Origin: Candidatus Aminicenantes bacterium
GTDB lineage: Bacteria; Acidobacteriota; Aminicenantia; Aminicenantales; Saccharicenantaceae
NCBI GenBank assembly: GCA_963743205.1
Contig: CAVUOW010000003.1
Span: forward strand, 169,497-233,496
DNA length: 64,000 nucleotides
Direction of reading: 5' to 3'
Under the pieces are notes generated by a model. The model was not told the DNA's origin and made no database searches. It saw only the letters and a list, made by a program, of their open reading frames with translations. Shown piece after piece: positions 15,208 to 37,577 of this stretch (positions are counted from its first letter, which is position 1; every line of letters begins with the position of its first letter). Made by a program: the position numbers and the translations under genes.

Positions 15208-15311
15208 AGTAAGCGCAACAGGATAGCATGTCCCGCGGCGGCAGGCAATCGGCCGCGATTGATTCCGCGACGTCTCCTGTGCTATATCAGGCCCAGTGTC
15301 AGGGGGCGTTC

Positions 15312-16325
15312 ATGAGCAAGCCGATCCCCAAAGAAGGCATCGTTCAACTGCCGTGGGAGGAACAGCTCCGCTCGTTCGCTGAGCTCGCGAGCGACGCCGT
15401 GGATTCGGCCTCCTACGGGCAGTTCGAATCGCGATGCGAAGCCTTCGGGTTGCGGCTCGCCGCCGACGAGATCGTCATTCTGGCCGCCCTCGACGCCCCG
15501 GCGAAAGTCCAGGAATTCCTCGACACCCGCCTCTACTACAACGACGACCACGCTTCGGTCGATCAAGAGGAGACGGCCATGCCGCCGCGGCTCGTCCTGC
15601 AGACGGGCATGGCCCATTGCTTCGAGGGGGCCATGTTCGCCTACGCCGTGAACTTCCTCCACGGCCACGAGCCGCGCCTGGTCATGCTCGAGGCCAGCCA
15701 GGACGCGGACCACAATCTCATCGTCTGTCGCGACAAGAGCACGGGCCTTTACGGCGCGAACGCCCAATCGCGCTACCCGGGCCTCGTCGGCCGTCCCGCC
15801 GAATACCCGACGCTGAGGGCCCTCGCGGAGAGCTATGTGCCGTTCTATTTCAGCGACCGGACGCTCGATCCGAAGGACCTGACCCTGGTCGGCTTCTCGG
15901 AGCCGGTCGATCTCGCCGCCAAGTTCGGCACGGCCTGGATGGGCTCCGTGGAACCGCTCTGGGACATCTATTACACCTATATCGACGACTCGGTTCCCTT
16001 CCATTACTTCTTCGATGACCCGGGACGGCCGCATCTCTACCCGGCCGTGCGCGCCCTCAAAGAGAATTGGGTCCGCCTGGATGCCGCCGGCGAGCCCCAC
16101 GTCAGCTTGGATGATCTGCCGTCCGGAGCGAAAAAAGAGTGGGACGCCTTCTGGAGCGTCTACGGTCCCAAGGACGGGCCGCGTCCGCGGGGGAGAGCCA
16201 AGGAGATCGAGCAGGCCTTCTTCCGGCTCACCGGCACGACGCCGATCGACCTCGACGATATCGCTTTCGATCTTCAGTTCTACCTGGCCGCCGGCTACCG
16301 CCTCGATCAGATCATAAAACGGTGA
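15312..16325 (+). CDS. hypothetical protein
   Basis: Start moved to ATG 15312, in frame with the 15228 ORF and with a G-rich RBS-like stretch upstream. Composition is coding-like and no family was recognised. The AHCFEGA Cys motif is the only landmark. Stop TGA 16323-16325 lies inside palindromic repeat A1. Confidence 0.55.
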   Translation: MSKPIPKEGIVQLPWEEQLRSFAELASDAVDSASYGQFESRCEAFGLRLAADEIVILAALDAPAKVQEFLDTRLYYNDDHASVDQEETAMPPRLVLQTGMAHCFEGAMFAYAVNFLHGHEPRLVMLEASQDADHNLIVCRDKSTGLYGANAQSRYPGLVGRPAEYPTLRALAESYVPFYFSDRTLDPKDLTLVGFSEPVDLAAKFGTAWMGSVEPLWDIYYTYIDDSVPFHYFFDDPGRPHLYPAVRALKENWVRLDAAGEPHVSLDDLPSGAKKEWDAFWSVYGPKDGPRPRGRAKEIEQAFFRLTGTTPIDLDDIAFDLQFYLAAGYRLDQIIKR

Positions 16326-16424
16326 CACACAACTAAATACACTTAATTCCCCGCAAATCTACGCCGTCCTTTCGGGAGAAGCGAACAGAGAGCGCGAGTT
16401 AAGTGTATTTAGTTGTGTGTCACC
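16321..16424. repeat. family-A palindromic element, copy A1 (28/26-nt arms, 50-nt loop)
   Basis: GGTGACACACAACTAAATACACTTAATT ... TTAAGTGTATTTAGTTGTGTGTCACC. It fills the gap between convergent stops at 16325 and 16432. Confidence 0.9.
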
Positions 16425-16431
16425 GAAATTA

Positions 16432-19400
16432 TCAGCGTTTCTTTTGGTAGTCGGGGTAGGCCGGCTTTTTGTGCTTCGGGGGCGGGTTCTTGGCCAGCAG
16501 ATCCATGGCGACTTCGACCGCTTTCTCGAGCTGAGCGTCGTGTCCCGCCTTGATCGCGGCCGGCTCTATCTGGACCTCGAAGTCCGGATCGACGCCGTGG
16601 TTCTCGACGTCCCACGTCCCGTTCGGATTCCAGAAGCCGCTCTGCGGCGCGCCGACGAACCCGCCGTCCATCAGCGGGGCCGCCCCGGCCATGCCGACCA
16701 ATCCGCCCCACGTCCGCATCCCGACGAGCGGTCCGATCCCGGCCGCCCGGAAAAGCCAGGGCATCATGTCGCCGCCCGAGCCGGCGTATTCGTTGATGAT
16801 CATGACCTTGGGCCCGTAGATCGAGCCCACGGGCGTCTTATAGTCGACGCCGTCGCGTGCGGCGAAGTAGCCCATGAGCGGCCGCCGCATGTAATCGATG
16901 ATGTAATCGGCGATCAGCCCGCCCTGGTTGAAGCGCTCGTCGATGACCGCGCCTTCCTTGCCGACCTGGGCGAAATAATAGCGGTTGAAGTTCGTGTAGC
17001 CGCCCTCGGCCGTGTCCGGCAGCCAAACGTAGGCCAGCTTGCCGCCGCTCAGCTTGTCGACTTTCCGCCGATTGTCCTCGACCCAGGCCAGGTTGCGCAG
17101 GCCGCCTTCGCTGCCGACCGGGACCACGGTGACCTCGCGGGCGCCCTTGCCGTCGGGAGTCGGGCCGACCTTAATTACGGTCTGCTTCCCGGCCGTGGCC
17201 TCGAAGGGCTTGTAGACCTCCTCGGCCGCCGTGACCTCCCGTCCGTTGACCGCCAGCAGGTACTCGCCCGCGGCGACGTTGACGCCGGGCTGGGTCAGAG
17301 GCGCCTTGAGCCGCGGGTTCCAGTTCTCGCCGTTGTAGACGCGGGCGAACCGATAGCGCCCGTTCTCGATCTTGTAGTCGGCGCCGAGAAGGCCCACGCC
17401 GATCGTCTTCACCTCCGGCAGGTCTCCGCCGCCGACGAAGACGTGGCCGCAGGTCAGCTCGCCGAGCATCTCTTCGAAGAGATAGTTCAGGTCCTGGCGG
17501 CTGGCCACCCCCTCGACGTAGGGGGCATACCTCTTCTCCGCGGCCGCGAGGTCGAGACCGTGGTGGTTCGGGTCGTAGAAGAAATCGCGCTCAAGGCGCC
17601 AGGTCTCATGGTACATCTGCTTCCACTCGACGAGGGGCTCGACACGAACCTCCATCCCGCCCGTGTTGAGCACACCCTTCCCGGGCTCCACCGGCCCCGC
17701 GGCCGCGGCGATCGTAAATTGCGGCCCCTGGCTGATCAGGATCTTTTCGCCCGTGGCCGAGATCGTGAAGCCGTTGACGCCGTCCAGGAACTTGTCGGTC
17801 TTGCGCGTGCTCAGGTCGAATTTTTGGATGGAGTTCGAGGACGAACCGCCGAGCATGGCTGTGAACGCCTGCGGCGCCTCGAGCAGGAACACGATGCCTT
17901 CTTTCCCCGTGACGAGGGAGACGTAGTTTTTTGCCGGGACCGGCAAGGCCAGGATGCGCTGGCTGATCCCCTCGAGGTCGATGACGACCTTTTCCGGTTC
18001 TTTGGCCGCTTCCTTGTCTTTATCCTTGTCCTTTGTCTCGCCGGCCGCCGGTTTCGCGGCGCCAGCCTTGGCCGCATCCGCCTTTTCCGGCTCCTTGGGC
18101 TTCTCGTCGTCGCTCTCAGGCGCGAGCGGCGAGGGCAGGTCCTTCTTTAGCACGGCGACATAGACGCTCCGCGTGACCGGCCTGTCCATGCTCGACATGT
18201 TCAGCCACCCGGGCGTCAGTCCGACGTCCGTGCTGGCCGTGAAGAAGAGATATTTCCCGCTCCGGTCGAACGCCGGATACTTGGCGTCGCTCAGGCCGTC
18301 CGTGACTTGCGAGGCCTGGCCGCTCTCGATCGAATAGACCATGACGACGTCCATGTGGCTGGGAACCTGTTTGGCGTACGTCAGCCAGCGGCTGTCCGGC
18401 GACCAGCCGAAATCGAAGGTGAACGTCGGGTTGTAGTAATAGGTCGTGTCGACCTTGACCGGCACGCCCTTGGCGATATCGACGTACCAGAGGGTCAGCC
18501 GCTTGTCGTTGTAAGCGATCTTCTTGCTGTCGGGCGACCAGACGGGCCGGTAGAAGAAGGACGGCGGCTCGCCGAGCCCGATCGTCTTCGCCGGCCCCTG
18601 CCCGGCCTGGTCCCGGATGTGCAGGGCGTATTCCCCCGATTCGTCCGAGAAGTAGGCGATCGACTTGCCGTCAGGCGACCACGAGGGATCGCGCTCCATG
18701 ACGCCGGTCGTCTGGGTCAGGTTGCGGATGTCGCCCTTCTCGGCCGGCACGGTCAGGATCTCTCCGCGGGCTTCGAAGACCGCCCGGGCCCCGTTCGGCG
18801 AGATCGCGGCCGCGGAGATGCGTTGTCCGACCTTGACGTAGTGCGGCCGGACCTCGGGCAGGTCCCCCTCGAGCGAAACGGATACCGGATGGGCCTTCCC
18901 TGTGGCCGGGTCGAAGAGATGGAGGGCGCCGAACTGTTCGACGATGATGCCCCCGGGCCCGGCTGAAGCCGATTTGAAATCGAGGCCGTTGTTCGGCAGG
19001 ACCTGATCGACCTTCTTGGTCGCCAGGTCGTAGACGAAGAGCGACACGGGGCCCTTCCGGTCGGACAGGAAATAGATCTTGTCGCCGACCCAGAGCGGGT
19101 TGGAGTCGTTGGAATTGTCACGCGGGATCTTCTCGACCTTGAGGTCGGCGAGCGAGACGATCCAGATCGGCGTCGTCTGGCCGCCCTTGTAGCGTTTCCA
19201 GGCCACCTGCCACTGCATCGTCGGGACGTAGGCTAGGCGCGACCCGTCGGCGGAGAATGAGGCGGAGACGCCTGTCGGCAGAGGCAGTTCCTCGGGGAAG
19301 CCGCCGTCCAGGCCGACCGTGAAGAGCGTCGGGATGCCCGAGGCGCTCGACCGCGCCGACCGGAAGACGATGCGCTTGCCGTCGGGCGTCCAGCCGACGA

Positions 19401-19743
19401 CTTCGTCGGGGTTGGGATGATAGGTCAGCCGGCGCGGGACGCCGCCCGCGGCCGGAACGATGTAGACATCGGTATTCCCGTCATATTGGCCGGAGAAGGC
19501 GATCGTCGCGCCGTCGGGAGAGAATGCGGGATCGTTCTCGATCCCGACGCCGGCGGTCAGCCGAATGGCCGCCCCACCGTCGCGCGGTGCGAGCCAGAGG
19601 TCGCCCGCGTAGGCGAATACGATCTGCGTCCGGCTGAGCGACGGGTGCTGGGCCAGCAGCGGCTTTTCGGCCGCCACGAGGGCTGGCCTTGCCGCGAGCG
19701 CCGCGAGAATGAAGACGCCGATGATCCTGCCGTGCTTTGTCAT
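16432..19743 (-). CDS. tricorn-protease-like S41 peptidase (beta-propeller + PDZ + S41)
   Basis: 1103 aa with a signal peptide. TolB/WD40-like repeats (DPAFSPDGATIAFSGQYDGNTDVYIV, PSWSPDGKSIAYFSD, PVWSPDSKKIAYND). C-terminal S41-like region (INEYAGSGGDMMPW). Confidence 0.85.
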   Translation of the reverse strand: MTKHGRIIGVFILAALAARPALVAAEKPLLAQHPSLSRTQIVFAYAGDLWLAPRDGGAAIRLTAGVGIENDPAFSPDGATIAFSGQYDGNTDVYIVPAAGGVPRRLTYHPNPDEVVGWTPDGKRIVFRSARSSASGIPTLFTVGLDGGFPEELPLPTGVSASFSADGSRLAYVPTMQWQVAWKRYKGGQTTPIWIVSLADLKVEKIPRDNSNDSNPLWVGDKIYFLSDRKGPVSLFVYDLATKKVDQVLPNNGLDFKSASAGPGGIIVEQFGALHLFDPATGKAHPVSVSLEGDLPEVRPHYVKVGQRISAAAISPNGARAVFEARGEILTVPAEKGDIRNLTQTTGVMERDPSWSPDGKSIAYFSDESGEYALHIRDQAGQGPAKTIGLGEPPSFFYRPVWSPDSKKIAYNDKRLTLWYVDIAKGVPVKVDTTYYYNPTFTFDFGWSPDSRWLTYAKQVPSHMDVVMVYSIESGQASQVTDGLSDAKYPAFDRSGKYLFFTASTDVGLTPGWLNMSSMDRPVTRSVYVAVLKKDLPSPLAPESDDEKPKEPEKADAAKAGAAKPAAGETKDKDKDKEAAKEPEKVVIDLEGISQRILALPVPAKNYVSLVTGKEGIVFLLEAPQAFTAMLGGSSSNSIQKFDLSTRKTDKFLDGVNGFTISATGEKILISQGPQFTIAAAAGPVEPGKGVLNTGGMEVRVEPLVEWKQMYHETWRLERDFFYDPNHHGLDLAAAEKRYAPYVEGVASRQDLNYLFEEMLGELTCGHVFVGGGDLPEVKTIGVGLLGADYKIENGRYRFARVYNGENWNPRLKAPLTQPGVNVAAGEYLLAVNGREVTAAEEVYKPFEATAGKQTVIKVGPTPDGKGAREVTVVPVGSEGGLRNLAWVEDNRRKVDKLSGGKLAYVWLPDTAEGGYTNFNRYYFAQVGKEGAVIDERFNQGGLIADYIIDYMRRPLMGYFAARDGVDYKTPVGSIYGPKVMIINEYAGSGGDMMPWLFRAAGIGPLVGMRTWGGLVGMAGAAPLMDGGFVGAPQSGFWNPNGTWDVENHGVDPDFEVQIEPAAIKAGHDAQLEKAVEVAMDLLAKNPPPKHKKPAYPDYQKKR

Positions 19744-19790
19744 TGTCCCCTCCCGGCCGATGGCTCGGCCCTTATTCGATCCCCTGCGGG

Positions 19791-21210
19791 TTAGAAGACG
19801 AGTCCGGCGCCGACGCCGAAGACGAGACGGTTCGAACCGTAGGTCATCTCGAAGCCGGGAAACGTGGAGGCCCCCGGCGAGGCCGAAGCATAACGGAGGA
19901 AGACATCGAAGGAGAGGTCGCTGACCCTCTCGCCGTCCCCCCAGACTGAGAACAGCGGTCCTTCATAGCCGAAACCGATCGAATAGTTGTTGCGGTCGAG
20001 ATCGGGATAGACGGGCGTCCGGCCCGCCTCATTGACCGAGCTCTGACGGCGGGCGTAGCCGGCCCGCAGCGCGAGGTAGCGCCCGGGACGGAATTCGAGG
20101 CCGGCCTTGATGTCCGTCGTGTCCCGCTGAGTCAGGGGAATGCCTTGGGTGCCATAGTTCAGCTCAAGGCCGTAAAACTGCTGGTATTCGGTCGTGAAAG
20201 CCGGGTTGAGGGCGGCGCCCTCGTTCACGGACCGGAAGGTCCAGTCGCCGAACTCGCTCCAGCGGTCCCACACGACGTCGAGATAAACGGACAGACTCGG
20301 GAGGGGCGTCAGCGCGAAGCCGCCGGCGATCTCGCGAGGGAATGTCAGCCGCCCGGTCACATCTTGGGTCGCATAATAGAAATCGATGAGGTCGGAGACG
20401 CGGCGCGACGGCCGATGGGGATCGGGGACCGTGACGCCGGATATATCCAGCTGCGCGTTGAAAATGTCCGTGCCCGCATAGTCGACGGGGACGCCCTGCT
20501 GGTACCTCGCCCCGATCCGGAGGGCGGGGACGACCTGCCACAGGGCTCCGGCCACGAAGCCCAGGCCGTTGCCGTGCAGACGGTGACTGCTGTCGATATC
20601 GACCGGCCGCGCGAGCGGGTAGTTCGGGATGTCGAAGGGGATCGTGTGGAGCCAGCGCAGGCTCGAAGATACGACATCGACCCCGGCGCTCAGGGCGAAG
20701 CCCTTGACCACCTCGACGGCCACGACGGACCGGAAATAGAGCGACCTCAGCCGGTTGCGCTCATTGAGCGTTTCTCCACTCCAGCCCGGAGTCCAGTACG
20801 ATTCGTAGTTGTAGGGAGAAAAGAGTCCCGTGCCGATCGTGACCCGCTTGAACGGCTGCCAGGACATGGCGATCGAGCCCAAGAACTCGGACGGCGCGGT
20901 CCGGTAAGGCCCTGGGCCTCCATCGGGCCAGGCCGCGGTCGTCGTCCGCGTGCTGAAGGCGATATTCGTCTTGAGGCGGAACCCGGTGAGGAAGGCCAGG
21001 CCGGCGGGATTGTAGAAGAGGGCGGAGGCGTCGTCCGCGAGGGCCGTGAAGGCCCCGCCGAGGGCCGCGGCCCGGGCGCTCGGTTCGTGAAAGCTGAAAT
21101 CGTCGGCGCCGAGGCGGGATGGGACGAGGGCCAGGGCCAGGGCCAGGGCGAGAACGAGGGCTGGAACGGGCCCTCTCGACCGGGAGGTTCTTGTTCGACA
21201 AGATGATCAT
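19791..21210 (-). CDS. FadL/OMPP1/TodX-family outer-membrane channel (frame break near the 5' end)
   Basis: The frame of the 363-aa ORF stays open upstream of 20882 and encodes PVPALVLALALALALVPSRLGADDFSFHEPSARAAALGGAFTALADDASALFYNPAGLAFL (FadL N-terminal signature). That frame has no ATG/GTG/TTG. ATG 21210 is in another frame (MIILSNKNLPVER), implying a 1-nt indel near 21165-21185. The C-terminus ends ...GAGLVF. Confidence 0.7.
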
Positions 21211-21325
21211 GATGCTCGGCCTGCTTCCGAGCGGGCTATCTTAGCACCGACCGGGGGGAATGGGAAGCGGCCCGGATTGACAAAAGCTGGAACGGGCCTC
21301 ATAGTCATTTTATCCGGAGGCCGGC

Positions 21326-23356
21326 ATGCGGCGCGGCGGCAAACGCGGCACTCTCCTTGTGGTTCTTGCGCTGGCGTCCCTCTCCGTCCCTTTCCTTATC
21401 GGAGCCGCCGGGTCCGGACGTCCCGGGTCGTCCGGCCAGGCGAAGAGCAAGGCGCCCGAGGCGTCCCTCCAGCACGAGGTCACCGTCACCCTGAAGCTCA
21501 TCCAGGTCTTTGTCACCGACGCCCAGGGAAAAGCGGCCATGGACTTGAACAAGTCCGATTTCGCGTTGTATGACAATGGCGCGCTCCAGGCGATCACGGA
21601 TTTCGAGAGTCACGTCCTGGCCGCGCCGCCGATCGAGCGCGCCGAGGCGGCCCCCGCTCCGTCAGCGGCCGGGAAGGCCGCGGCTCCGCTCGTCAGCCGC
21701 AAATTCTTCTTCATTATCGATTACGTGAGGAACAAGCTCGAAGGCGTCATGAAGGCACGGAACGCCGTCCTCGAGTTCATGGACACGAAGGTCCAGCCCG
21801 GAGACGAAGTCTCGCTTTATACGCTGTCCTCGCTCGGCGGATTGGTCCTCCACGAATATCTCACCACGGACCACGGCAAGCTCAGGCGGACGCTCATGAA
21901 GCTGCGCGACGTGCCAGGCATCACTCCCGTCGCCGACGAGAGCTCGGGCGCGCACGAACCCATGGGCATGGAGGTCATGAACGCCGAGATCTTCGGCCCG
22001 CACGGCGGGCACAGCGGGACCGGCAGCCGGAATCACTTCGCCGAGATCGCGGCCTGGGCCAAGTCCCTCAGGGCCATTCCCGGCCAGAAGAACGTCATTC
22101 TGTTCTCGCAGGGATTCGGCGGGGCCGTCATCCGGCCCGGCGATTCCGCAAACTCGCTCTTTCAGCTGATGACGAGGGAGCTCGCCACGGCCAACGCGCC
22201 GGTCTTCACGGTCAACACCACAACCGGAGTCGACGACAAGATCGCCCTTGGCGTCTTCCCTGAATTATCGCTTGACTATCTCTCGCGGACGACCGGCGGG
22301 AGATATTTCCCGGACGTCAACTATTATGCCCGGATCGCAACAGACATCCAGGATTCGACAGCCAATTACTATGTCCTCGGCTACAGCATCCCCGCCGCCT
22401 GGGACGGGAAGTACCATGACGTCAAGGTCGACGTCGTCAAGCCCGGATACAAGGTCTATGCCCAAAGGGGCTACTTCAATCCTGAGCCGTTCGCGAAGCT
22501 CTCGCCCGTCGAAAAACACCTGCACCTGATCGGCGTTGCTTTGGGTGACGCGGCCTCTTCGGCGAGAGATTTGGATTTCCCGATGACGGCCGTTCCGTTC
22601 GCGACGACGGGCCAGTTGGGCGACGTCCTCCTTCTTTCCGAGCTCTCCGTCCCCTCGGTCCGGAACGCGGTCGGCGACCGCACGGAATTCGTCAGCCTGG
22701 TCTTGAACGAGAACAACGCCATCGTCGACGGGAAGAGAGTGGAGCTCGATTGGAAAGAATTCGTCGCCGGCACGGTCTATCAGTATTCGACGGTCTCGCT
22801 GGCGCCGGGGCGATACGACTGCCGTGCCGTCATCAGGAACCTCGACGACGGGCGGGCGGCCGTCGGATCCTGTTCGATCGACGTCGCCTCTCCGCAGACC
22901 GGAGGTCCGACCCTTTTTCCGCCGCTTCTCCTCGTCCGCGGGCCTGAAGCGCGGTATCTCAACGTCGCCCCGCAAGCGAAGGGGAGCGGCGAGCTGGGCC
23001 TCTCGATCTCCCGGATCTTCCCCTTTCCGGCCAAAGAATATGTTCCCCTCGTGGGCGCGCTCGAGCAGCGCACGACCTCACTTTTCGCCACCCTGCGCTG
23101 CGAATGGAAGGAAGAGCGTCGCGGCGAGGGTCAGATGGATCTCTCGGCTTGGCTCTCGCCCGAAGGAAGCGAGGAAAGGGAGCCAGTCGAATTAAAGCTG
23201 CTCGAAAGCGTCAGCCGCGACGAAGCGGACTTCTATCTTCTCGAGTTCGGGCTTCCCGATTATCTCATGCCCGGACGCTATCGGCTCGAGATCCAAGCCG
23301 AGGACATGGTGAAGGGCTCGATCGTCCGCACGACGGGCTCGTTCACCGTCCATTAA
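21326..23356 (+). CDS. VWA-domain protein of the acidobacterial VWFA-related type
   Basis: 676 aa with a signal peptide. The N-terminal EVTVTLKLIQVFVTDAQGKAAMDLNKSDFALYDNGALQAITDFE resembles the VWFA-related acidobacterial domain family (TIGR03436, from memory). Confidence 0.65.
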   Translation: MRRGGKRGTLLVVLALASLSVPFLIGAAGSGRPGSSGQAKSKAPEASLQHEVTVTLKLIQVFVTDAQGKAAMDLNKSDFALYDNGALQAITDFESHVLAAPPIERAEAAPAPSAAGKAAAPLVSRKFFFIIDYVRNKLEGVMKARNAVLEFMDTKVQPGDEVSLYTLSSLGGLVLHEYLTTDHGKLRRTLMKLRDVPGITPVADESSGAHEPMGMEVMNAEIFGPHGGHSGTGSRNHFAEIAAWAKSLRAIPGQKNVILFSQGFGGAVIRPGDSANSLFQLMTRELATANAPVFTVNTTTGVDDKIALGVFPELSLDYLSRTTGGRYFPDVNYYARIATDIQDSTANYYVLGYSIPAAWDGKYHDVKVDVVKPGYKVYAQRGYFNPEPFAKLSPVEKHLHLIGVALGDAASSARDLDFPMTAVPFATTGQLGDVLLLSELSVPSVRNAVGDRTEFVSLVLNENNAIVDGKRVELDWKEFVAGTVYQYSTVSLAPGRYDCRAVIRNLDDGRAAVGSCSIDVASPQTGGPTLFPPLLLVRGPEARYLNVAPQAKGSGELGLSISRIFPFPAKEYVPLVGALEQRTTSLFATLRCEWKEERRGEGQMDLSAWLSPEGSEEREPVELKLLESVSRDEADFYLLEFGLPDYLMPGRYRLEIQAEDMVKGSIVRTTGSFTVH

Positions 23357-23360
23357 TTTC

Positions 23361-23500
23361 GGTGACACACAACTAAATACACTTAATTCCCTCGCCGTTG
23401 GCCAGACCTGATGCGGAGTCAAGGCTATCCTGCAGCGAGTCTGAGCTAAGAGGAGCCGGCCCAGCTGAAGATAATTAAGTGTATTTAGTTGTGTGTCACC
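23361..23500. repeat. family-A palindromic element, copy A2 (28-nt perfect arms, 84-nt loop)
   Basis: Same arms as A1. It sits 4 nt after the VWA stop (23356) and 5 nt before the GH38 stop (23506). Confidence 0.9.
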
Positions 23501-23505
23501 GTTTC

Positions 23506-26076
23506 TTATTTGCGGACGAGCCGGATGGTCTTGATCTCGTAGGGTGCGAGCGGCACCGTGATCGACGTGCCCGAGCCGATCGTCTTTCCGGTCGGTCGCT
23601 CGATCAGATCGCACTCGCTGGCTTCGACTTTCCAGGGGAGCTCGATCTTGGCCTCGGTCTTCTCGCCGTGGATCTCGTAGAGCCTGAGGATGAGGCCCCA
23701 CTCGGCGTAGCCCATCTCCTTCTTCACCGCGGACAGGATGACGTTCGCCGGACCGACCTTGATGAACGAGTGGACCTTGGGCAGATCTCCGCCGTGAACG
23801 AGCGGCGCTCGCGCGATCAGGGGATTTCCGAGTTCCAGGCCTTTTCGCGTCACCGCCGCGCCCTTCCAGTCCCCGCTGTGGGGGAGGACCGAGTAGAGGA
23901 GCTCCTGGCGGCCGCGGTCGGCTTCGGAGTCGGGGTAGGTGGCCCCGTGGACGACGGACATGCGCATGACGCCGCCCTTGACGTCGAAGCCGTACTTCGA
24001 ATCGTTGAGGAGCGCCGTTCCGTATTGACCCGACCCGTCCGTGACATCGATCCAGCGCAGGGCCGGGACTTCCGTCCCGTCGGCGGGGCGGGCGATCGAG
24101 CCGTAGGGGATCTCGAAACGGGCGGCCGGAGATTTGATGTCGAGCGGGAAGGCCGCCTTGATCATGATGTTCCGCTCGCGCCAGTCGAGGCTCGTCCGGC
24201 AGTCGAGCCGCGGCAGGCCCCGATAGAGGGTCAGGTCCTGGACGAAGGTCGAGTCGCGGAAGCGCGATTTGACCCGGAGGACGACCCGCACCGGGCCGCG
24301 CTCGACGAGCTCGATCGTCGCGCCGTTCTCCCCGGCCCGACCGGCGAGTCCCTTGAAGCCCAGCTCCCAGGCCGACATCTCTTTGGGCTCGTCGATGACC
24401 GCTTCGAGGACGTTCCCGGGACCGGCCAGGACTTCGCGCTTGGCCGTCTTGTCGAAGAGGCTTTCGATCCAGCCGGTCTTCGGGTCGAGGCGGACCTTGA
24501 GGAAATCGTTTTCGATCTCGGTGGCGCTGGCCTTAACGCTCGTCGGGCCGGCCCCCTCCGTCTCGGCCGGGATGACGCGATAGAGCTTGTAGCCGAGCGA
24601 GGGCACGCCCTCGGCCATGAAGACGACGCGGAAGGTCGTATTGTCGCCCTGGGCGCGCTTCTCCAGCACCTGGACGGGGATGTCTTTCCCCTCGCCGTCG
24701 GTCATGCGCACGGTGCCGCCCCAGGGCTTGGCCGTCTTCGCGTCCGGCGGGACGACGATGTCGGCGAAAGCGGGCTCCGTCCGCTCCCAGAAGAGCGGGT
24801 TGTAGACGACGACCGGGAAACCCTCGCCCCTCGTGTCGATCGCGTTCCCGATCGTCTCGAGCGAGAAGTCGAGCGCCCGCTCGCCCCGCATCCGCGCCTG
24901 CCGGTAGAATCCGCCGACCTCGTCGTAGACGGGGCCGATGCTCGAGCCGTCGAGGATGTCGTGGAACTGGTTGCGGAGGACGATCTTCCAGGCTTCGTCG
25001 ATGTCACGCTCGGGATAGTAGTCCCGGTATCCCGAGGTCGCGGCGATCGCGGAGAACTTCTCGGCCGTGACGAGGAGGCTTTCGAGCTGGCGGTTGTTCT
25101 TCTTGGTCGCCGTCTGGGTCGTGTAGCAGGCCGGGAAGGTGAAGTTGAGCTCGCGCTTGACGACCGGGAGCGCGGCGCCGTTCGCGGCGGCGATCCCCTT
25201 GAGATAGGGCTCGGGGAGGTCGAAGACGAGCCGGGGCTCGTTCGGGTCCTCCCGGTATTTCTTGATCGCGGCCAGGTCCACGTCCCGCGGCCCGCCGCCG
25301 TGGTCCCCGGCGCCGTAGAGGATCATGAAGTCCTTGATGTCGGTGTTCTTGCGCGCGGTCTCGAGGATCTTGCGCGTTCCGTCCTGGAGACTGACGTTGT
25401 ACCAGCCGGCCGGCACGTATCCGAGGACGCGCGAGCCGTCCATCCCTTCCCACCAGAAGAAATGGGTCGGGTCCGGTCCGGGCGCGCAGCGGCCGAAGAC
25501 GTAGGAGTCGATCCCGGCGCGGCGCAGGATCTGGGGCAGCTGCCAGTTGTGGCCGAAGGTGTCGGGGTTCCAGCCGACCTTGACGTCGACGCCGAACTTG
25601 TCGAGGAAATAGCGCTTGCCGTAGAGGAGCTGGCGGGCGAGCGCTTCGCCGTCGGGCATGTTGGCGTCGGGCTCGACCCACATGCCGCCGACCGGGACCC
25701 AGGTCCCTTCCTTGATCTTGCGCGTGATCTCGGCGAAGAGCTCGGGCTGGTCCTTTTCGATCGCGTCGTAGATCGCGGCCTGGCTCTGGGCGAATGTCAG
25801 ACCGGGCATCTTGTCCATCTGGGCCAGGGTCCCCTTGAAGGTGTAACGGGCGATATCGGACACGGTCTCTTCCCAGCGCCAGAGCCAGCTCAGGTCGATG
25901 TGGGCGTGGCCGACGAGATGGGCCGTGAGCGTGCGCGGCGGCACGGGCGCCGGGGCGGCCGCGGCCGCCGGCTTCTGGGCCGATGCGGTCTGACCGGGGC
26001 CACCGATCGCCGTCGAGGCGGCCAGCGCGATGACGGCTATGAGGACGACGAGAGTGCGAAGCGAACGGATCTTCAT
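23506..26076 (-). CDS. GH38 alpha-mannosidase
   Basis: 856 aa with a signal peptide. GHAHIDLSWLWRWEETV motif typical of the GH38 N-terminal catalytic domain. Length and C-terminal beta-rich region fit. Confidence 0.8.
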   Translation of the reverse strand: MKIRSLRTLVVLIAVIALAASTAIGGPGQTASAQKPAAAAAPAPVPPRTLTAHLVGHAHIDLSWLWRWEETVSDIARYTFKGTLAQMDKMPGLTFAQSQAAIYDAIEKDQPELFAEITRKIKEGTWVPVGGMWVEPDANMPDGEALARQLLYGKRYFLDKFGVDVKVGWNPDTFGHNWQLPQILRRAGIDSYVFGRCAPGPDPTHFFWWEGMDGSRVLGYVPAGWYNVSLQDGTRKILETARKNTDIKDFMILYGAGDHGGGPRDVDLAAIKKYREDPNEPRLVFDLPEPYLKGIAAANGAALPVVKRELNFTFPACYTTQTATKKNNRQLESLLVTAEKFSAIAATSGYRDYYPERDIDEAWKIVLRNQFHDILDGSSIGPVYDEVGGFYRQARMRGERALDFSLETIGNAIDTRGEGFPVVVYNPLFWERTEPAFADIVVPPDAKTAKPWGGTVRMTDGEGKDIPVQVLEKRAQGDNTTFRVVFMAEGVPSLGYKLYRVIPAETEGAGPTSVKASATEIENDFLKVRLDPKTGWIESLFDKTAKREVLAGPGNVLEAVIDEPKEMSAWELGFKGLAGRAGENGATIELVERGPVRVVLRVKSRFRDSTFVQDLTLYRGLPRLDCRTSLDWRERNIMIKAAFPLDIKSPAARFEIPYGSIARPADGTEVPALRWIDVTDGSGQYGTALLNDSKYGFDVKGGVMRMSVVHGATYPDSEADRGRQELLYSVLPHSGDWKGAAVTRKGLELGNPLIARAPLVHGGDLPKVHSFIKVGPANVILSAVKKEMGYAEWGLILRLYEIHGEKTEAKIELPWKVEASECDLIERPTGKTIGSGTSITVPLAPYEIKTIRLVRK

Positions 26077-26211
26077 GGGTTGCCTCCTCCGGACGGACGC
26101 CCCAGGGCCCGCCAGGTGCTCTGATTATAGGGTTTCCGGGAGGTCGAACTCAACCCCTAAAGGACTCGGATTCGACGCCAGCCCGTTTTTGGCGGCGCTG
26201 GGCCGCCCTGA

Positions 26212-27601
26212 CTAGAAGATGAAGCCGACGCCGAGTCCCGCGACCCAGCGCTTGGCGCCGTAGATGAGCGCGGGATCGGTCAGCGCAGAGGTGACCGTGC
26301 CGGCCGAAGCGTAGCGGACGAAGACGTCGAGCGAGAGCTGGCTGACGGCCTTTTCCGAATCCCAAATGGCGAACAGCGGGCCCTCGTAGCCGGCCCCGAA
26401 CGAGTAGACGCTGAAGCCGTGGTCGGGATAGAGGGGGGTCTGCCGGCCGTCCGGGACGGAGCTCCCATGACGGGCGAAGCCGGCCCTGAAGGCGAACCAT
26501 TTTCCTGCGCGATACTCCACGCCGGCCATGAGCTTTCTCGAATCCTTGAGGGTCAGGGCGACTCCCTGGATCCCGTAATTGGGCTCGATGCCGTAGAACT
26601 CCCGGTAGAGGGGCGGGAACGCCGGGCTCAGGTCGCCGCCCTCTTTCACGGACGTGAACGTCCACTGTCCGAATTCGCTCCACCGGTCCCACTGGAGGTC
26701 GAACGAGAGCGACAGGTTTCGGATGGGGGTCAGGGAGACGCCGCAGGCGATCTCGCGGGGCAGGGTCATCCGGCCCGTGACCTTCTGGCTGGTGTAGAAC
26801 ATGCTCAAGAGATCGCTCAGGATGCGGTACGGACGGTCCGGGGCGGGGAGGTCGGACCCTGAAGTTCCGTAATCGAACATATAGCTGTTGACCCCGGTGA
26901 GATCGATCGCGACACTCTTCTGATATCTCGCCCCGAACTGGAGCCCGGGAAGGGCCTTCCACATGACGCCGGCCGCGAGACCCACGCGGTGTCCTCTCAG
27001 CTCGTAAAAGCTGGTCACCTTGGCGGGTTCAGGGAGAGGGTAGTTAGGGACATCGAAGGGGATCTTGTGGTCCCAGCCCACTCTCAGCGAGACGAGATCG
27101 AGGGCGACACTGAAGGCCAGCCCTTTCAGCGGCTCGACGGCCACGGCGGACCTGAATGTCAACGCGTTGAGTTTTGCGGCGATGGAGACATCTTCCGCAC
27201 TAAAGGAGCGCGGCCAGCGCGAATCGAAATTGAAGGGCGAATAGAGACCGAACCCGAAGCTGATCCCCCGGGCCGGGCGCCAGGCCAGGAACTGACTTCC
27301 CCGGATCTCCCGCGGCCCGTTGGGGAAGGTCAGGCCCGTGTCCGCCCGGGTGGCGCTCATCGTCCGGGCGTCGAACGTCAGGTTGGTCTTGAAGCGCCAG
27401 CCCCCGAGGAAGGCCAGGCCCGGCGGGGTTGTAGAAGATCGCCGAAATATCGTCCGCCCTGGCCGTGAAGGAACCGCCGAGAGCGGCGGCCCTGGCCCCG
27501 ATCTCGTGAAAGGTGAAGTCGTCGGCCCGGAGAGGATGCGGCGGCAGAAGCACAAAACTGAGGGCCATCGAAACGGCGAGAAGGCGGGTGATACGGGTCA
27601 T
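26212..27601 (-). CDS. FadL/OMPP1/TodX-family outer-membrane channel, paralog of 19791..21210 (frame break)
   Basis: ATG 27601 gives MTRITRLLAVSMALSFVLLPPHPLRADDFTFHEIGARAAALGGSFTARADDISAIFYNPAG. The 447-aa ORF continues LAFLGGWRFKTNLTF in another frame. The junction at ~27415-27430 has GGCCAGGCCCGGCGGGG where the paralog has GGCCAGGCCGGCGGGA (one extra C). Ends ...GVGFIF. Confidence 0.7.
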
Positions 27602-27608
27602 CGGGGCC

Positions 27609-28556
27609 TCAATCGCGGACTTCGAACTCGACGGTGAAGAACTTGAAATCTTTGTAGACGACTTCGGTTTTCGAGCGGACGAACGCCTTGCCGGATTCCT
27701 TGAGGTAGGTTTCCTCGACGGACAGTCGGCTGGGGAACCGGATGCCGTTCTTCTCGGCGCTGAACTCGGAGCGGATGTTGAGCCGGGGCTTGCGCTTGAA
27801 GGCCTCGCCCCTCTTGGCGAACACGTCGAAGTTCCCGACCCGGTCCTCGCTCCACTCGATCTTGAGGATGTTCCCCGTGGCGGGGTCGATCCAGGATCTG
27901 CCGTAAAGGTTCCGGGAGGCCGGCGCCCCGGGCTTGGGTTCGGCGTCGACGATGACCACGGCGGTCTCGTCGATCCGGTCACGGCCGGCGATCGTAAAAT
28001 CGTAGCCGGGCTGGAAGCGCTGGCCGAACAATCCGACCGGCGCGAGAAGAGCGGTGCCGAAGACGACGATCGACGTTTGGAGCTCGGCGTTGGGCACCAT
28101 CTTCCTCTTGCCGTTCTCCTCGAGCTGGTTGCGGATCTCGCGGATGGCCCGTCCGGCCCGGATGCATTGGTAGTCGTAGACGAAGCTGCGCTTGATCTTC
28201 CTGACGGTGCTGATCACGAGCGTCGGTCCGATATAGTTCGATGCGCCCGGCCCCGTATAGTTCGTCGAGCCGGGACCCAGTTGGAGGCCTTTTTGTGCGG
28301 CATCGAGCTTCGGGTCGATCGTCTCGCGGATCTCCTCGCGGCAGACGAAATCGAAGGCCGAGCTCTCGAGCTTGCGGCAGTATTCGGCGGCCTTGGCCAG
28401 GATGTCATCGAGAGACGATGAGACAGGGGGGAGGGGACTTGGAGACGGCTTCTGGGGCGGAACGTTTTGGGCCGGGGCCAGGGCGTCAGGCAGGAACGCA
28501 AGGGCCAGGACAGCGATCATCGCGGCGATCGATCGTGAAATGCGCTTGCCCGGCAT
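27609..28556 (-). CDS. hypothetical secreted protein
   Basis: 315 aa with signal peptide MPGKRISRSIAAMIAVLALAFLP. No family recognised. Directly upstream of, and co-directional with, the FadL paralog. Confidence 0.55.
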   Translation of the reverse strand: MPGKRISRSIAAMIAVLALAFLPDALAPAQNVPPQKPSPSPLPPVSSSLDDILAKAAEYCRKLESSAFDFVCREEIRETIDPKLDAAQKGLQLGPGSTNYTGPGASNYIGPTLVISTVRKIKRSFVYDYQCIRAGRAIREIRNQLEENGKRKMVPNAELQTSIVVFGTALLAPVGLFGQRFQPGYDFTIAGRDRIDETAVVIVDAEPKPGAPASRNLYGRSWIDPATGNILKIEWSEDRVGNFDVFAKRGEAFKRKPRLNIRSEFSAEKNGIRFPSRLSVEETYLKESGKAFVRSKTEVVYKDFKFFTVEFEVRD

Positions 28557-28723
28557 GGTTCCTCGCAGGACCGCGGCTTTCTCGCCCCGAGATCAGGATA
28601 GGCCCCCTCTCTGGGGAAAGCAAGCCGCAGAAGGTCCGCAGTTGAATTCGCTCCGGCCCCGATCGATGTTTAGGGAAGAAGGGGTTTGACCCCTTCTTGT
28701 GGCATTCGGGCTATCATAATTTC

Positions 28724-28790
28724 GGTGACACATAACTAAACTCACTTAATTCCCCAATAAATAATTAAGTGTATTTAGTTGTGTGTCACC
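28724..28790. repeat. family-A palindromic element, copy A3 (28-nt arms, 11-nt loop, 3 mismatches in left arm)
   Basis: GGTGACACATAACTAAACTCACTTAATT-ccccaataaat-AATTAAGTGTATTTAGTTGTGTGTCACC, flanked by AATTTC/GAATT. Lies in a divergent intergenic region. Confidence 0.85.
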
Positions 28791-28807
28791 GAATTGGGGA
28801 GGACGCG

Positions 28808-29650
28808 ATGAAGGTCCGATACGGATGCGAAGAGGGCGAGCTTTCTCATTACACGTGTTTCCGCACGTCCCATAAGCTCGCGATCGACGGCCGCCTGGAC
28901 CGGCCGGCCTGGCGCGAGGCACCCAAGTCCCGCCGGTTCGTCGATCTCGTGAACGGCGTTCCCGGTTTTCTTGAAACGCGCATGGCCTCGCTCTGGGACG
29001 ACGACTACCTCTACGTCGCTTTTTGGGTGAGCGAGCCGAACGTCCAAGCGAAGCTCCTCGAGCGCGACTCGCTCGTCTGGACCGAGAACGACGTCGAGAT
29101 CTTCATCGGCGGAGAAGACTGCTACTACGAGTTCCAGATCAACGCCCTGGGTACGATCTACGAGGTCTTCTACATCTGGCAGGACGCGCTGAAGAAGGGC
29201 AGCCGCTTCGACCTGCCGGAGTTCGATCTCCGGGCCCGGCGCGTCGACGTCATCGGCGGCTTCCAGGACGGCATGCGCTACGGCAAACACCCGCGGGGCC
29301 TGCGTTGGGCTTTCATGGATTGGGACCTTCCGGGGTTGCGCGCGGCGGTCCAGGTCCAAGGGACGCTCAACAACCCTGCCGACATCGACGAGGGCTGGAC
29401 GGCCGAGATCGCCTTCCCGTGGCGCGGCATGAAGCATCTCGCCGGCAGCCGCCCGGTCCCGCCGCGGGACGGCGACGTCTGGCGCATGGATTTCTCCCGC
29501 TTCGAGCTTCTGGAGAATTGCGGCGTCACGGTCGAGCCGCACCCCGGCTGGGCCCTCAACAAGCACGGCGTCTACGACTCGCACATTCCCGAGTGCTTCT
29601 CGTTCGTGCATTTCTCGGGCCTGGACGCGGCCGACATCCCCCAAAGATAA
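28808..29650 (+). CDS. CBM9/DOMON-like carbohydrate-binding-family protein
   Basis: Start moved to ATG 28808, because the 28769 start lies inside repeat A3. IDGRLDRPAWREAP...WDDDYLYVAFW...ENDVEIFIGG pattern as in family-9 carbohydrate-binding modules. Confidence 0.5.
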   Translation: MKVRYGCEEGELSHYTCFRTSHKLAIDGRLDRPAWREAPKSRRFVDLVNGVPGFLETRMASLWDDDYLYVAFWVSEPNVQAKLLERDSLVWTENDVEIFIGGEDCYYEFQINALGTIYEVFYIWQDALKKGSRFDLPEFDLRARRVDVIGGFQDGMRYGKHPRGLRWAFMDWDLPGLRAAVQVQGTLNNPADIDEGWTAEIAFPWRGMKHLAGSRPVPPRDGDVWRMDFSRFELLENCGVTVEPHPGWALNKHGVYDSHIPECFSFVHFSGLDAADIPQR

Positions 29651-37342: not shown

Positions 37343-37577
37343 AATGGGGTCGGACCACAGCAATAAGAACTAAATCAATGACATAGGTCCATTTATGACG
37401 TTGCTGGAGGCTTAAAATCCGTGTTTTTGACCCCAAAAATGAGACTTGACCTATATGGACAACCATTTTGGCGATCGTTGTTTTTGGCCCAAAAAATGCG
37501 GGACTTAAGCACTCTAGTTCACAAAAAATGGGGTCAAATCACTGATAATGTTCCGATTGCTGTGGTCCGACCCCAAA
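37343..37577. mobile_element. family-B doublet B1 (two inverted ~100-nt arms; REPIN/MITE-like)
   Basis: AATGGGGTCGGACCACAGCAATAAGAACTAAATCAATGAC...GTTTTTGACCCCAAAAA ... GTTTTTGGCCCAAAAAA...GATTGCTGTGGTCCGACCCC. Ends anchored on the 37421 ORF frame. Confidence 0.85.

Follow-up and report, generated by a model that had tools for sequence, protein, structure and literature searches.

The window, by which we mean the whole stretch of 64,000 nucleotides that was analyzed, contains three palindromic hairpins in the gaps between its genes. A search for the 28-nt arm GGTGACACACAACTAAATACACTTAATT gives 6 matches in the window at no more than 3 mismatches, compared with 0 in 100 shuffles. The matches are the paired arms of three copies, which lie where the first-pass annotation had put them. 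The arms, interiors, and outer flanks are as follows.

16315..16320: AT-rich outer flank, degenerate (consensus tAATTC / GAATTa in a logo of 55 arms)
16321..16424: copy 1, 104 bp
16321-16348 (+): copy 1, left arm
16349-16396: copy 1, interior, 48 nt
16397-16424 (-): copy 1, right arm, 1 mismatch
16425-16430: the same kind of outer flank
23355-23360: the same kind of outer flank
23361..23500: copy 2, 140 bp
23361-23388 (+): copy 2, left arm, perfect
23389-23472: copy 2, interior, 84 nt
23473-23500 (-): copy 2, right arm, perfect
23501-23505: the same kind of outer flank
28718-28723: the same kind of outer flank
28724..28790: copy 3, 67 bp
28724-28751 (+): copy 3, left arm, 3 mismatches
28752-28762: copy 3, loop CCCCAATAAAT, 11 nt
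28763-28790 (-): copy 3, right arm
28791-28796: the same kind of outer flank

Copy 1 lies between a convergent open reading frame (ORF) at 15228-16325 and an ORF for a tricorn-type protease at 16432-19743 on the minus strand. The TGA stop of the first is the TGA of GGTGAC in the left arm of copy 1, and the stop of the second is 7 nt after the copy. Copy 2 begins 4 nt after the stop of ORF 21326-23356 and ends 5 nt before the stop of a GH38 ORF (23506-26076, minus strand). These distances, taken from the ORFs, are the ones that had been given before, although the label "VWA" for ORF 21326-23356 receives no confirmation from Pfam. Copy 3 lies between the divergent ORF 27609-28556 (minus strand) and an ORF with an ATG at 28808 behind GGAGG. 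As read from TAATTCGGTGACACACAACTAA, the flank and the start of the arm together contain stop codons in all three frames within 24 nt, and the elements can therefore abut or overlap gene ends.

The arms had been described as identical except for 3 mismatches at 28724. They are indeed nearly identical, and the 3 mismatches in the left arm of copy 3 represent a minor AAACTCAC arm variant, but the right arm of copy 1 also has one mismatch (AGTTAAG for AATTAAG). Similarly, interior lengths of 84 and 11 nt hold, while the interior of copy 1 has 48 nt rather than 50. The interiors start with CCC as reported (CCCC, CCCT, and CCCC in copies 1, 2, and 3, respectively). An AATTTC/GAAATT extension outside the arms is real, but it is degenerate and reads tAATTC before GGTGAC in the 55-arm logo; this outer flank lengthens the palindrome to about 34 bp. 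A box AACTAAAT(A/C)A had also been proposed to be common to these arms and to the window's family B. The arms read AACTAAATAC, which does not fit the box, and the sole match to the box in the window is at 37368; this leaves the link to family B without support.

Within itself, the 28-nt arm is not self-complementary, and it lacks GTAG; a hairpin forms only when the two arms pair. Folding gives strong hairpins for all three copies on both strands, at -36 to -76 kcal/mol with z of -9 to -11. No Rfam family matches positions 16000 to 29200, even at E values of up to 1.

Further copies, whose absence would have spoken against the first-pass annotation, are found when the whole genome is searched for the arm. 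There are 55 arms, which form about 28 paired hairpin loci and leave 1 or 2 arms partnerless; besides these inverted dimers and one or two solos, there is one direct pair of arms, beside the transposase gene that is described below. The interiors of the elements are unrelated and 11 to 105 nt long, with no discrete length classes. In the logo of the 55 arms, positions -6 to -1 carry 0.4 to 1.6 bits, and there is a sharp drop to about 0 bits inside position +28. The claim that the hairpins exactly fill convergent gaps is correct for copies 1 and 2, but it is not a rule of the family, in which 3 of 19 classifiable elements are convergent. A commoner pattern is an arm within 10 nt of a stop codon (15 of 27 elements), and the arm's own TGA ends 6 genes. 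Other elements lie ahead of start codons or in gaps between tandem or divergent genes. No direct repeat of at least 4 nt was found at any offset that could be a target-site duplication. An inverted target-site duplication was considered and rejected: the symmetry of the flanks stops at the common tAATTC consensus, and there is no covariation.

Only one copy of the element is long. It measures 855 bp (C9:318425-319279), its ends form a 29-nt exact inverted seed, and between the same 28-nt arms it carries a 220-amino-acid ORF for a HUH/Y1 transposase (Pfam Y1_Tnp, E of 2e-9) with NHVH at residues 59 to 62 and the motif KYILFNPVRA. The first-pass annotation had raised the idea of REP-like sites for an enzyme encoded elsewhere, and had proposed looking for a second RAYT gene flanked by these arms; this RAYT-like gene, which lies outside the window, is what that idea predicts. 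Against the NCBIfam model for REP-associated tyrosine transposases, the ORF scores 54 bits, which is under the curated cut-off of 80 and which we count against the assignment. A PDB search with the single 220-amino-acid protein gave no direct match. A profile of the genome's 5 paralogues, however, has as its best match E. coli TnpA-REP (PDB 4ER8; E of 3e-8), and its match to ISDra2 TnpA is weak. The NHxH motif is invariant in 5/5 paralogues, and the tyrosine of Y---NP is present in 4/5, this enzyme among them. In three paralogues there is a C-terminal extension of about 80 amino acids with a conserved TGRPxG...F...LE..GR motif, which matches no Pfam HTH model even at E values of up to 10.

Each paralogue has arms of its own, such as GGGGACACAATACC... 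around C9:519097 and GGGGTCGGACCACAG around the RAYT of the window. The arm terminus of the present family, GGTGACAC, agrees with 7 of 8 positions of GGGG[AT][CG]A[CG]; the one position at which it departs from GGGGWSAS is likewise counted against the assignment. The sister families in this genome start with GGGGACAC, GGGGTCAA, and GGGGTCGG. The genome has at least four TIRYT/TIRtron families of about 50 arms each, which together come to about 200 arms, or roughly 100 hairpin elements, in 3.4 Mb.

Based on the arms that flank the long copy and on the distribution of the short copies, we conclude that the three palindromes of the window reproduce, without the gene, the inverted ends of a second RAYT-like (TIRYT) transposase gene that lies elsewhere in this Aminicenantes genome. 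It is highly probable that they are nonautonomous hairpin elements of one TIRtron family, with 28- to 34-nt arms copied from the terminal inverted repeats (TIRs) of a single-copy TIRYT gene. In the terms of Di Nocera et al., such elements would be "TIR dimers," and in overall design they appear to resemble REPINs. Ordinary MITEs, meaning internal-deletion derivatives of a DDE-type insertion sequence with these TIRs, would also be short, dispersed, and intergenic and would have 28-bp terminal inverted repeats. However, the elements lack a target-site duplication, the enzyme encoded by the only long copy is of the Y1/HUH type and not a DDE transposase, and the interiors are unlike the long copy and unlike each other. 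An origin as MITEs is thus extremely improbable, and the earlier remark that this is not the usual MITE pattern stands, since there is neither a target-site duplication nor an interior from a parent insertion sequence.

The distribution of the gene among relatives agrees with that of the arms. Only two of 41 relatives have the gene at ≥98% identity, and their arm counts are 55 (G000, the present genome) and 49 (G005); a third genome, the Chersky.35_14 MAG, has the gene at 96%. Abundant intact arms are found only in the three genomes with the gene at 96 to 100% identity. Other genomes of the genus have 0 to 11 arms, mostly mutated, and their best homologue has ≤55% identity. This co-occurrence of arms and gene rests on one clade and is therefore a single evolutionary event. 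Most sites are orthologous between species, with flank identities of 75 to 99%, and the TIRtron locus itself is orthologous; the element sites are old and vertically inherited. The divergence of G000 from its two closest counterparts differs among classes of positions.

Arms: 4.4% from G005; 2.4% from Chersky.35_14
Interiors: 13.4% from G005; 9.1% from Chersky.35_14
Third codon positions: 17.9% from G005; 9.8% from Chersky.35_14
Codon positions 1+2: 5.6% from G005; 3.3% from Chersky.35_14

These rates show that, on the time scale of species, selection maintains the arms and does not maintain the loops.

Individual sites vary in their occupation. The site of copy 1 is empty in the relative G010 (CGGTGA TCC TCAGCG), and the relative G013 has an element at the left junction of copy 1 whose interior is probably inverted. 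At the locus of copy 2, G005 and G010 have another upstream gene and no hairpin at the 3' end of the GH38 gene. Copy 3 has orthologues with the same asymmetric arms in the Chersky.35_14 MAG (L056), where the loop is identical, and in MFD02222/G005 (L013), where the loop has 6 nt. Clean empty sites, with neither arms nor interior, are seen for C5_220805 in G010, G002, and G001, for C9_326839 and C5_818151 in G010, and for C5_700937 in G002, in addition to copy 1 in G010. At C6_86716, both arms are present in G000, while G005 and G010 have only the interior and the right arm.

Slow evolution of the arms would also be expected if the hairpins were mainly host-selected regulatory structures, such as bidirectional terminators, mRNA-protecting 3' stem-loops, or sites for RNase III or a host protein, with the arms kept for that role. 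The arms do change at a lower rate than third codon positions, either strand folds into a very stable stem, an arm lies ≤10 nt from a stop in 15/27 cases with six genes ending in the arm's TGA, and in G005 a right arm that lacks its partner is kept intact. REPs have been described as 3'UTR regulators in E. coli (bioRxiv 10.64898/2026.03.23.713779), which is consistent with such a role. In contrast, no T/U run follows the stems, which are A+T-rich with GAAWT as the flank, and a terminator scan called no intrinsic terminator at any of the three copies. The placement of other elements upstream of starts and in tandem or divergent gaps also counts against this explanation. Selection on structure alone would allow compensatory changes, yet the same 28 nt are found at about 28 loci; asymmetric arm mismatches persist across species, and relatives do well with empty sites or with another family at the same place. 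We therefore regard a mainly regulatory explanation as possible, but not as the probable one. It could coexist with a transposase origin by exaptation.

The statement that the interiors are unrelated withstands an all-against-all comparison, which clusters orthologues only and never paralogues. For the interior of copy 2, searches of the rest of the genome, of 40 relatives, of phage records, and of a metagenome collection found no match; in the last of these, neither an exact 20-mer of this interior nor a 21-mer of the left flank of copy 2 was found. Several candidate sources were tried and rejected. Capture from elsewhere is not supported by any donor in the genome or in phage records, and among the 40 relatives the only matches are the orthologous elements of G005. 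None of 18 interiors aligns to the 799-nt inside of the TIRtron, as remnants of deleted transposase copies should (minimum p of 0.07). An origin as old local spacer DNA was rejected because the interiors do not significantly resemble the spacers of empty sites and because no interior is present where a site is cleanly empty. Overwriting of arms in place around a resident loop of another family was rejected because elements of different families at one site have unrelated interiors; moreover, the interiors show no enrichment for the arm termini of families C, D, and E, and the one match (C9_361960) is at chance level. The loops are not structured like those of SBW25 REPINs (mean z of -0.5, p of 0.10).

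One paralogous pair, C6_77275 and C9_392280, has a loop in common, with 11 of 12 aligned loop bases identical, and therefore whole-element transposition has occurred. The elements C5_700937 and C9_712212 look younger than the split between G000 and G005, yet their interiors are orphans; this counts against whole-hairpin copying, which predicts donor-like interiors. At the measured rate of the arms, paralogous interiors should still be recognizable, and they are not, which is a further observation on the same side.

A different reading of the interiors is that the mobile unit is a single arm of 29 to 34 nt bounded by AATT, which inserts singly, in inverted pairs, and around old intergenic DNA. 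A conserved region with an abrupt inner limit at AATT and a gradual outer one, interiors that are unique to each locus, hybrids of one minor- and one major-variant arm such as copy 3, and the state of C6_86716, with interior and right arm only in G005 and G010 but both arms in G000, are all in keeping with single-arm insertion, and solo TIR copies are known in other TIRYT families (PMC3733652). However, among about 29 loci there are just one or two true solos, the interior is missing along with the arms at clean empty sites, and the interiors are without significant similarity to the spacers of empty sites. The extra left arm of C6_86716 is the more decayed one, which points to loss in the relatives and not to gain, and one paralogous pair has its loop in common. 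We consider single arms improbable as the mobile unit.

Comparison of orthologous elements also reveals changes of orientation. Of 23 comparisons between orthologues, 6 show an inverted interior; two of the 6 involve a genome whose flanks are 96 to 99% identical, and the flipped interiors are as short as 12 to 14 nt. In three flipped cases, arm variants show that inner parts of the arms were inverted along with the interior, which places the break in the outer 18 nt of the arm or at its ends. Different orientations, even across nearly identical flanks, are what invertons would produce, in which a dedicated recombinase flips the segment between the arms and so changes expression of a neighboring gene; moreover, the arms followed by AT form an inward promoter-like GTGACA-N17-AATTAT. 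Synapsis by looping, however, would need interiors much longer than 12 to 14 nt; many elements are flanked by convergent stops, so that a promoter there would have nothing to drive; and the ORF lists have no invertase gene beside the elements. The flipping of arm variants with the loop likewise does not fit invertons, which we judge to be very unlikely.

At 8 of 12 informative sites, the arm family of the hairpin differs from one species to another, and in at least two such cases, C8_28296 and C5_661081, the different-family elements begin at the same nucleotide. In-place flips of whole elements and the presence of different families at the same sites in related species are unusual for a known kind of repeat.

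For TIRtron-derived hairpin elements, which remain our preferred explanation, these observations suggest the following mechanism. The two arms would pair into a long stem on single-stranded DNA, and the enzyme would recognize this stem and cut at its foot. Whole hairpins could then be moved, exchanged, or re-set without target duplication, preferably at AT-rich spots directly behind stop codons, which would be used by all hairpin families of these genomes. As a passenger, the loop would drift, vary in length, and turn with the element in a flip, and the arms would be under purifying selection because only they matter to the enzyme. We infer the cleavage chemistry, the single-stranded intermediate, the choice of target, and any effect on transcripts.

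More speculatively, the arms may be fixed docking modules, located at preferred intergenic sites, at which enzymes of several paralogous Y1/HUH families exchange and flip entire hairpin cassettes; new copies would be "arms only," and their loops would not derive from the donor. Such a process would account jointly for the orphan interiors at every locus, the two younger-looking loci among them, for the sharp inner AATT boundary, and for the family swaps at 8/12 sites. We think it rather unlikely; if true, repeats would propagate in a way that has not been described for MITEs, REPINs, or IS200/IS605 elements.

To our knowledge, TIRYT-type enzymes are the largest and least studied group of RAYTs, and activity has never been shown for them. 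The present family is a clean test case, with one gene and one well-defined symmetric substrate, and sister species supply naturally occurring sites in the filled, empty, flipped, or replaced state. Selection on the arms only is relevant to whether the persistence of RAYT-type repeats reflects cooperation or domestication. In annotation, the elements deserve attention because several genes take their stop codons from them, because they mark the edges of variable gene blocks, and because they can be mistaken for terminators, MITEs, or invertons.

Small hairpin-associated inversions occur in plastid noncoding DNA, where the short segment enclosed by inverted repeats has been inverted repeatedly, in independent events, among close relatives. 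The elements described here differ in that inner arm variants flip together with the loop and in that a dedicated hairpin-cutting enzyme is predicted to be encoded. With the "peel and paste" elements of the IS200/IS605 family (IS608 and ISDra2) they share a HUH/Y1 enzyme, the lack of a target-site duplication, and terminal DNA hairpins. In contrast to those elements, one long symmetric stem forms from both termini instead of two different subterminal hairpins, and we found only an AT-rich tAATTC preference instead of a fixed 4- to 5-nt target.

The likeness to the REPIN-RAYT systems of Pseudomonas and E. coli (Bertels and Rainey 2011, PMC3116915; PMC3337134) is closer. In both, two inverted repeats form a hairpin around a poorly conserved spacer, the cognate transposase gene is single copy and vertically inherited, repeats and gene co-occur, and the populations are long-lived. 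REPIN spacers are nonconserved (PMC3337134), and in SBW25 no two of them are identical. However, the arm here is a plain 28-nt sequence and not a short palindrome with a GTAG tag, the spacers have no discrete length classes (11 to 105 nt), and they are unfolded (mean z of -0.5), whereas those of SBW25 retain a hairpin.

Di Nocera et al. (2013, PMC3733652) described RAYT-like genes flanked by TIRs, with TIR repeats that are single, dimeric, or grouped. These TIRtrons, or TIRYTs, have been equated with TnpA-REP subclass 2.1 (Quentin et al. 2018, PMC6006769), which has a C-terminal extension with an HTH-like domain, and with RAYT group 1 (Bertels et al. 2017, PMC5581495). The present family likewise has a RAYT-like HUH/Y1 gene between long non-GTAG terminal inverted repeats, repeats scattered over the genome mostly as inverted dimers, and several paralogous genes in one genome, each with its own repeat family; it also comes from an Acidobacteria-related lineage, where a sharply defined TIRYT group was reported. 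It differs in its terminus, GGTGACAC instead of GGGGWSAS, although GGGGWSAS is reported for many but not all TIRYT repeats and is thus not strictly defining. Its 55 arms are a high number compared with the average of 12 occurrences for the 16-mers that flank RAYT group 1 genes. Orthology of sites across species, a slow arm rate, in-place flips, and repeated occupation of sites by different families are absent from the TIRtron/TIRYT papers (PMC3733652, PMC6006769, PMC5581495). We conclude that the palindromes belong to the second TIRYT/TIRtron family of this genome, and that they are a known kind of bacterial repeat with some new behavior.

A search of the window with the arm 28-mer GGTGACACACAACTAAATACACTTAATT gives 6 matches at ≤3 mismatches, and arms of this type have 0 matches in 100 dinucleotide-preserving shuffles of the window. 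The matches form three inverted arm pairs, in the positions reported in the first-pass annotation:

16321-16424: copy 1, interior of 48 nt
23361-23500: copy 2, interior of 84 nt
28724-28790: copy 3, interior of 11 nt

The annotation described the arms of copy 1 as free of mismatches, but the right arm carries one. When folded, each copy is a highly stable hairpin on each strand (-36 to -76 kcal/mol, z -9 to -11). No Rfam family was found at these copies. The neighboring tricorn-type protease and GH38 genes are as originally described, but the label "VWA" for the 676-aa ORF at 21326-23356 has no Pfam support (no match at E up to 1e-5). The block of ~7 kb between copies 1 and 2 (16425-23360, from the protease to this ORF) does not contain the same genes in all relatives. 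G001 has only a 32-nt spacer between the gene left of copy 1 and the GH38 gene; G005 and G002 have one different gene in place of the block; and G010 has the protease and is without the 676-aa ORF and both hairpins. The copy 1 and copy 2 hairpins delimit a block whose genes vary.

The genome studied, G000 (3.4 Mb in 11 contigs, 86% complete; the window is C3:169497-233496), contains many more copies of the 28-mer. These 55 arms, which we call family A, resolve upon inspection of apparent solos into about 28 inverted pairs (elements) and one or two true solos. In a logo of all 55 arms, conservation is near-complete from GGTGAC to TTAATT, with a degenerate AT-rich extension (tAATTC) at the outer border and an abrupt drop to zero at the inner AATT. 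Interiors are 11 to 105 nt long and show no excess of folding over chance (mean z -0.5).

One family A copy is long and encloses a gene:

C9:318425-319279: TIRtron, 855 bp, sole long copy, with a 220-aa ORF between family A arms

The ORF matches Pfam Y1_Tnp (E 2e-9), scores 54 bits against the NCBIfam REP-associated tyrosine transposase model, which is under the cutoff of 80, and has the motifs NHVH and KYILFNPVRA. A profile of the five paralogues in G000 has E. coli TnpA-REP (4ER8) as its best match (E 3e-8), followed weakly by ISDra2 TnpA. The suggestion that the arms are REP-like sites for an enzyme encoded elsewhere was therefore correct, and the second RAYT gene flanked by them, which had been proposed as something to look for, is this one. 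There are at least four arm families in G000, each with about 50 arms, and the arms of families A, C, and E each enclose their own paralogous gene.

Arm families in G000
Family A, arm GGTGACAC: window copies 1 to 3 and TIRtron
Family C, arm GGGGACACAATACCTATTCCCC: 54 arms
Family D, arm GGGGTCAAACC
Family E, arm GGGGTCGGACCACAG

We conclude that family A is a second TIRYT/TIRtron repeat family of this genome.

TIRtron is flanked by a tRNA-Met gene on one side and the 3' end of an rpoD-like sigma-70 gene on the other (extracted locus L064, 1880-1951), and its right arm ends 6 nt before the sigma-70 stop codon. The family C paralogue (C9:519057-519839) is 51% identical. The inner end of the family C arm, ...TTCCCCAATT, is similar to the inner border of copy 3, AATT+CCCCAAT, and from this likeness families A and C may be diverged sisters. 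A third paralogue (C9:617089-617733, 40% identical) has His in place of the catalytic Tyr (RHIENNPVRA versus KYILFNPVRA) and no flanking inverted repeat of ≥12 nt; this copy may be inactive or may have been repurposed. Aminicenantales MAGs (SPRUCE, MFD) contain a 65- to 67-bp class (L012, L034, L035, L039, L046, L047, L050, and L053) whose arms have only the outer 16 nt in common (GGTGACACACAACTAA), with unlike inner halves (ATACACTAAATA versus TTACCGAAATAG) and G+C-rich loops of about 11 nt. These elements probably form a sister family whose stem is imperfect.

Of the 41 relatives, G000, with 55 arms, and G005, with 49, are the only ones rich in arms, the majority of them perfect over the 18-nt core, and the only ones with the gene at ≥98% identity. 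In other members of the genus there are 0 to 11 arms, almost every one of them mutated, and the best homologue reaches at most 55%. The Chersky.35_14 MAG has many arms and the gene at 96%. Since G000, G005, and Chersky.35_14 are one clade, this co-occurrence counts as one evolutionary observation, not three. At some orthologous sites, genomes without the gene have decayed arms only (e.g., G010 at C6_86716 and G001 at C5_767282).

Element flanks from other MAGs map to the same G000 sites in nearly all cases (75 to 99% identity), and the TIRtron locus is likewise orthologous. Rates were taken from aligned orthologues.

Divergence from G000
Arms: G005, 4.4% (2.6% without three decayed elements); Chersky, 2.4%
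Interiors: G005, 13.4% plus many indels; Chersky, 9.1%
Third codon positions of flanks: G005, 17.9%; Chersky, 9.8%
Codon positions 1 and 2 of flanks: G005, 5.6%; Chersky, 3.3%

By these values, the arms behave as constrained sequence and the interiors as roughly neutral sequence. Interior divergence is uneven among loci (0 to 29%, chi-square P = 2e-5).

The interiors had been called unrelated, and this extends to 74 interiors from G000 and related MAGs, which in an all-against-all comparison cluster as orthologues only, never as paralogues. A more sensitive search found a single exception, the 70-bp elements C6_77275 and C9_392280, which have a common 14-nt loop (11/12 aligned bases identical), indicating that whole hairpins were copied at least once. 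Our tests found no source for family A interiors, which are orphans, and no donor for two copies seemingly younger than the G000-G005 split. The numbers do not fit one ancient burst in which the arms were constrained and the loops neutral, since, given the arm rate measured here, paralogous loops would still be expected to be recognizable. Possible explanations are that donors are missing from an assembly at 86% completeness, that loops are replaced in episodes, or that copying leaves out the loop.

Of 23 orthologous comparisons, 6 show the interior as its reverse complement, two of them against the Chersky MAG, with flanks 96 to 99% identical. G000 carries the T19 variant of C9_774505 on the right arm, whereas G005 carries it on the left, and at C9_337368 and C9_556315 decayed inner arm ends exchange sides between orthologues. 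The asymmetric outer flanks of flipped elements have not moved. Because arm variants move with the loop and outer flanks stay fixed, the inversion in place took in the loop together with the inner portion of each arm; the breakpoints lie within the outer 18 nt of the arms or at their ends. A looping invertase is very unlikely as the agent, since interiors down to 12 to 14 nt flip. Strand switching between arms in replication and excision and re-insertion by the Y1 enzyme fit equally well.

Elements also share sites across arm families. Of 12 informative orthologous sites, 8 carry different families from one species to another, and in at least two cases (C8_28296 and C5_661081) their hairpins begin at the identical nucleotide after a stop codon.

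Sites occupied by different hairpins
C9_361960: A in G000, Chersky, G005; D in G010, G001
C8_28296: A in G000, Chersky, G005; D in G010, G013
C5_700937, C9_712212: A in G000; D in G005 and others
C5_220805: A in G000, G005; C in G012; a further family, GGGGACAYGTACC, in G013; empty in three genomes
C5_661081, C10_177464: C in G000; A elsewhere
tRNA-Met/rpoD gap: TIRtron in G000, G005; other hairpins in G010, G001; about 35 nt in G024

Each genome has about 100 hairpins for roughly 3000 intergenic gaps, so chance alone would give shared occupancy of only a few percent; either these sites are therefore preferred or newcomers displace the elements already there. Elements of different families at one site have unrelated interiors, and thus arms and loop change together. 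At one orthologous site, family D has a 6-nt loop in G005 (L101, G005:C118:19900-20200) and a perfectly self-complementary 30-nt interior in G010 (L103, G010:C14:15500-15800); interiors changing between constant arms are therefore not peculiar to family A.

An arm lies ≤10 nt from a stop codon in 15 of 27 elements, and only 3 of 19 classifiable elements are between convergent genes. The TGA of GGTGAC is the stop of six genes and the TAA of tAATTC that of many. TAATTCGGTGACACACAACTAA has one stop per frame, so elements can sit flush against genes. The 28-bp stem could plausibly serve as a terminator or mRNA stabilizer at a gene end, but no T-run follows family A stems and Rfam has no matching family. 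No target-site duplication was found at any offset. Clean empty sites are without arms and interior alike:

copy 1: G010
C5_220805: G010, G002, G001
C9_326839, C5_818151: G010
C5_700937: G002

The filled state is not a clean insertion, in that 3 to 11 nt of spacer is replaced by AT-rich outer flanks.

Within G000, family A elements are clustered (median nearest-neighbor distance, 10 kb versus 42 kb under random placement; P = 0.0005) and absent from contigs C4 and C10 (1.18 Mb together; P of about 5e-6); local hopping could account for this, as could a mixed bin. Families C, D, and E are distributed differently over the contigs. Where an arm is followed by AT, there is an inward promoter-like match, GTGACA-N17-AATTAT (9/12), as at window 28761-28789 and 23471-23499 (minus strand) and L064 2001-2030. 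Among 50 inner borders, AT follows in 12 (background, 6%) and C is first in 26. One arm of this kind is the extra solo arm that precedes the TIRYT gene, where the promoter-like form is directed into the gene.

C9:318425-319279 has the same architecture as the TIRtron/TIRYT of Di Nocera et al. 2013 (PMC3733652), which Quentin et al. 2018 equated with TnpA-REP subclass 2.1, the counterpart of RAYT group 1 in Bertels et al. 2017. What family A adds is the in-place flips, the contrast between arm and loop rates, and the sharing of sites among arm families.
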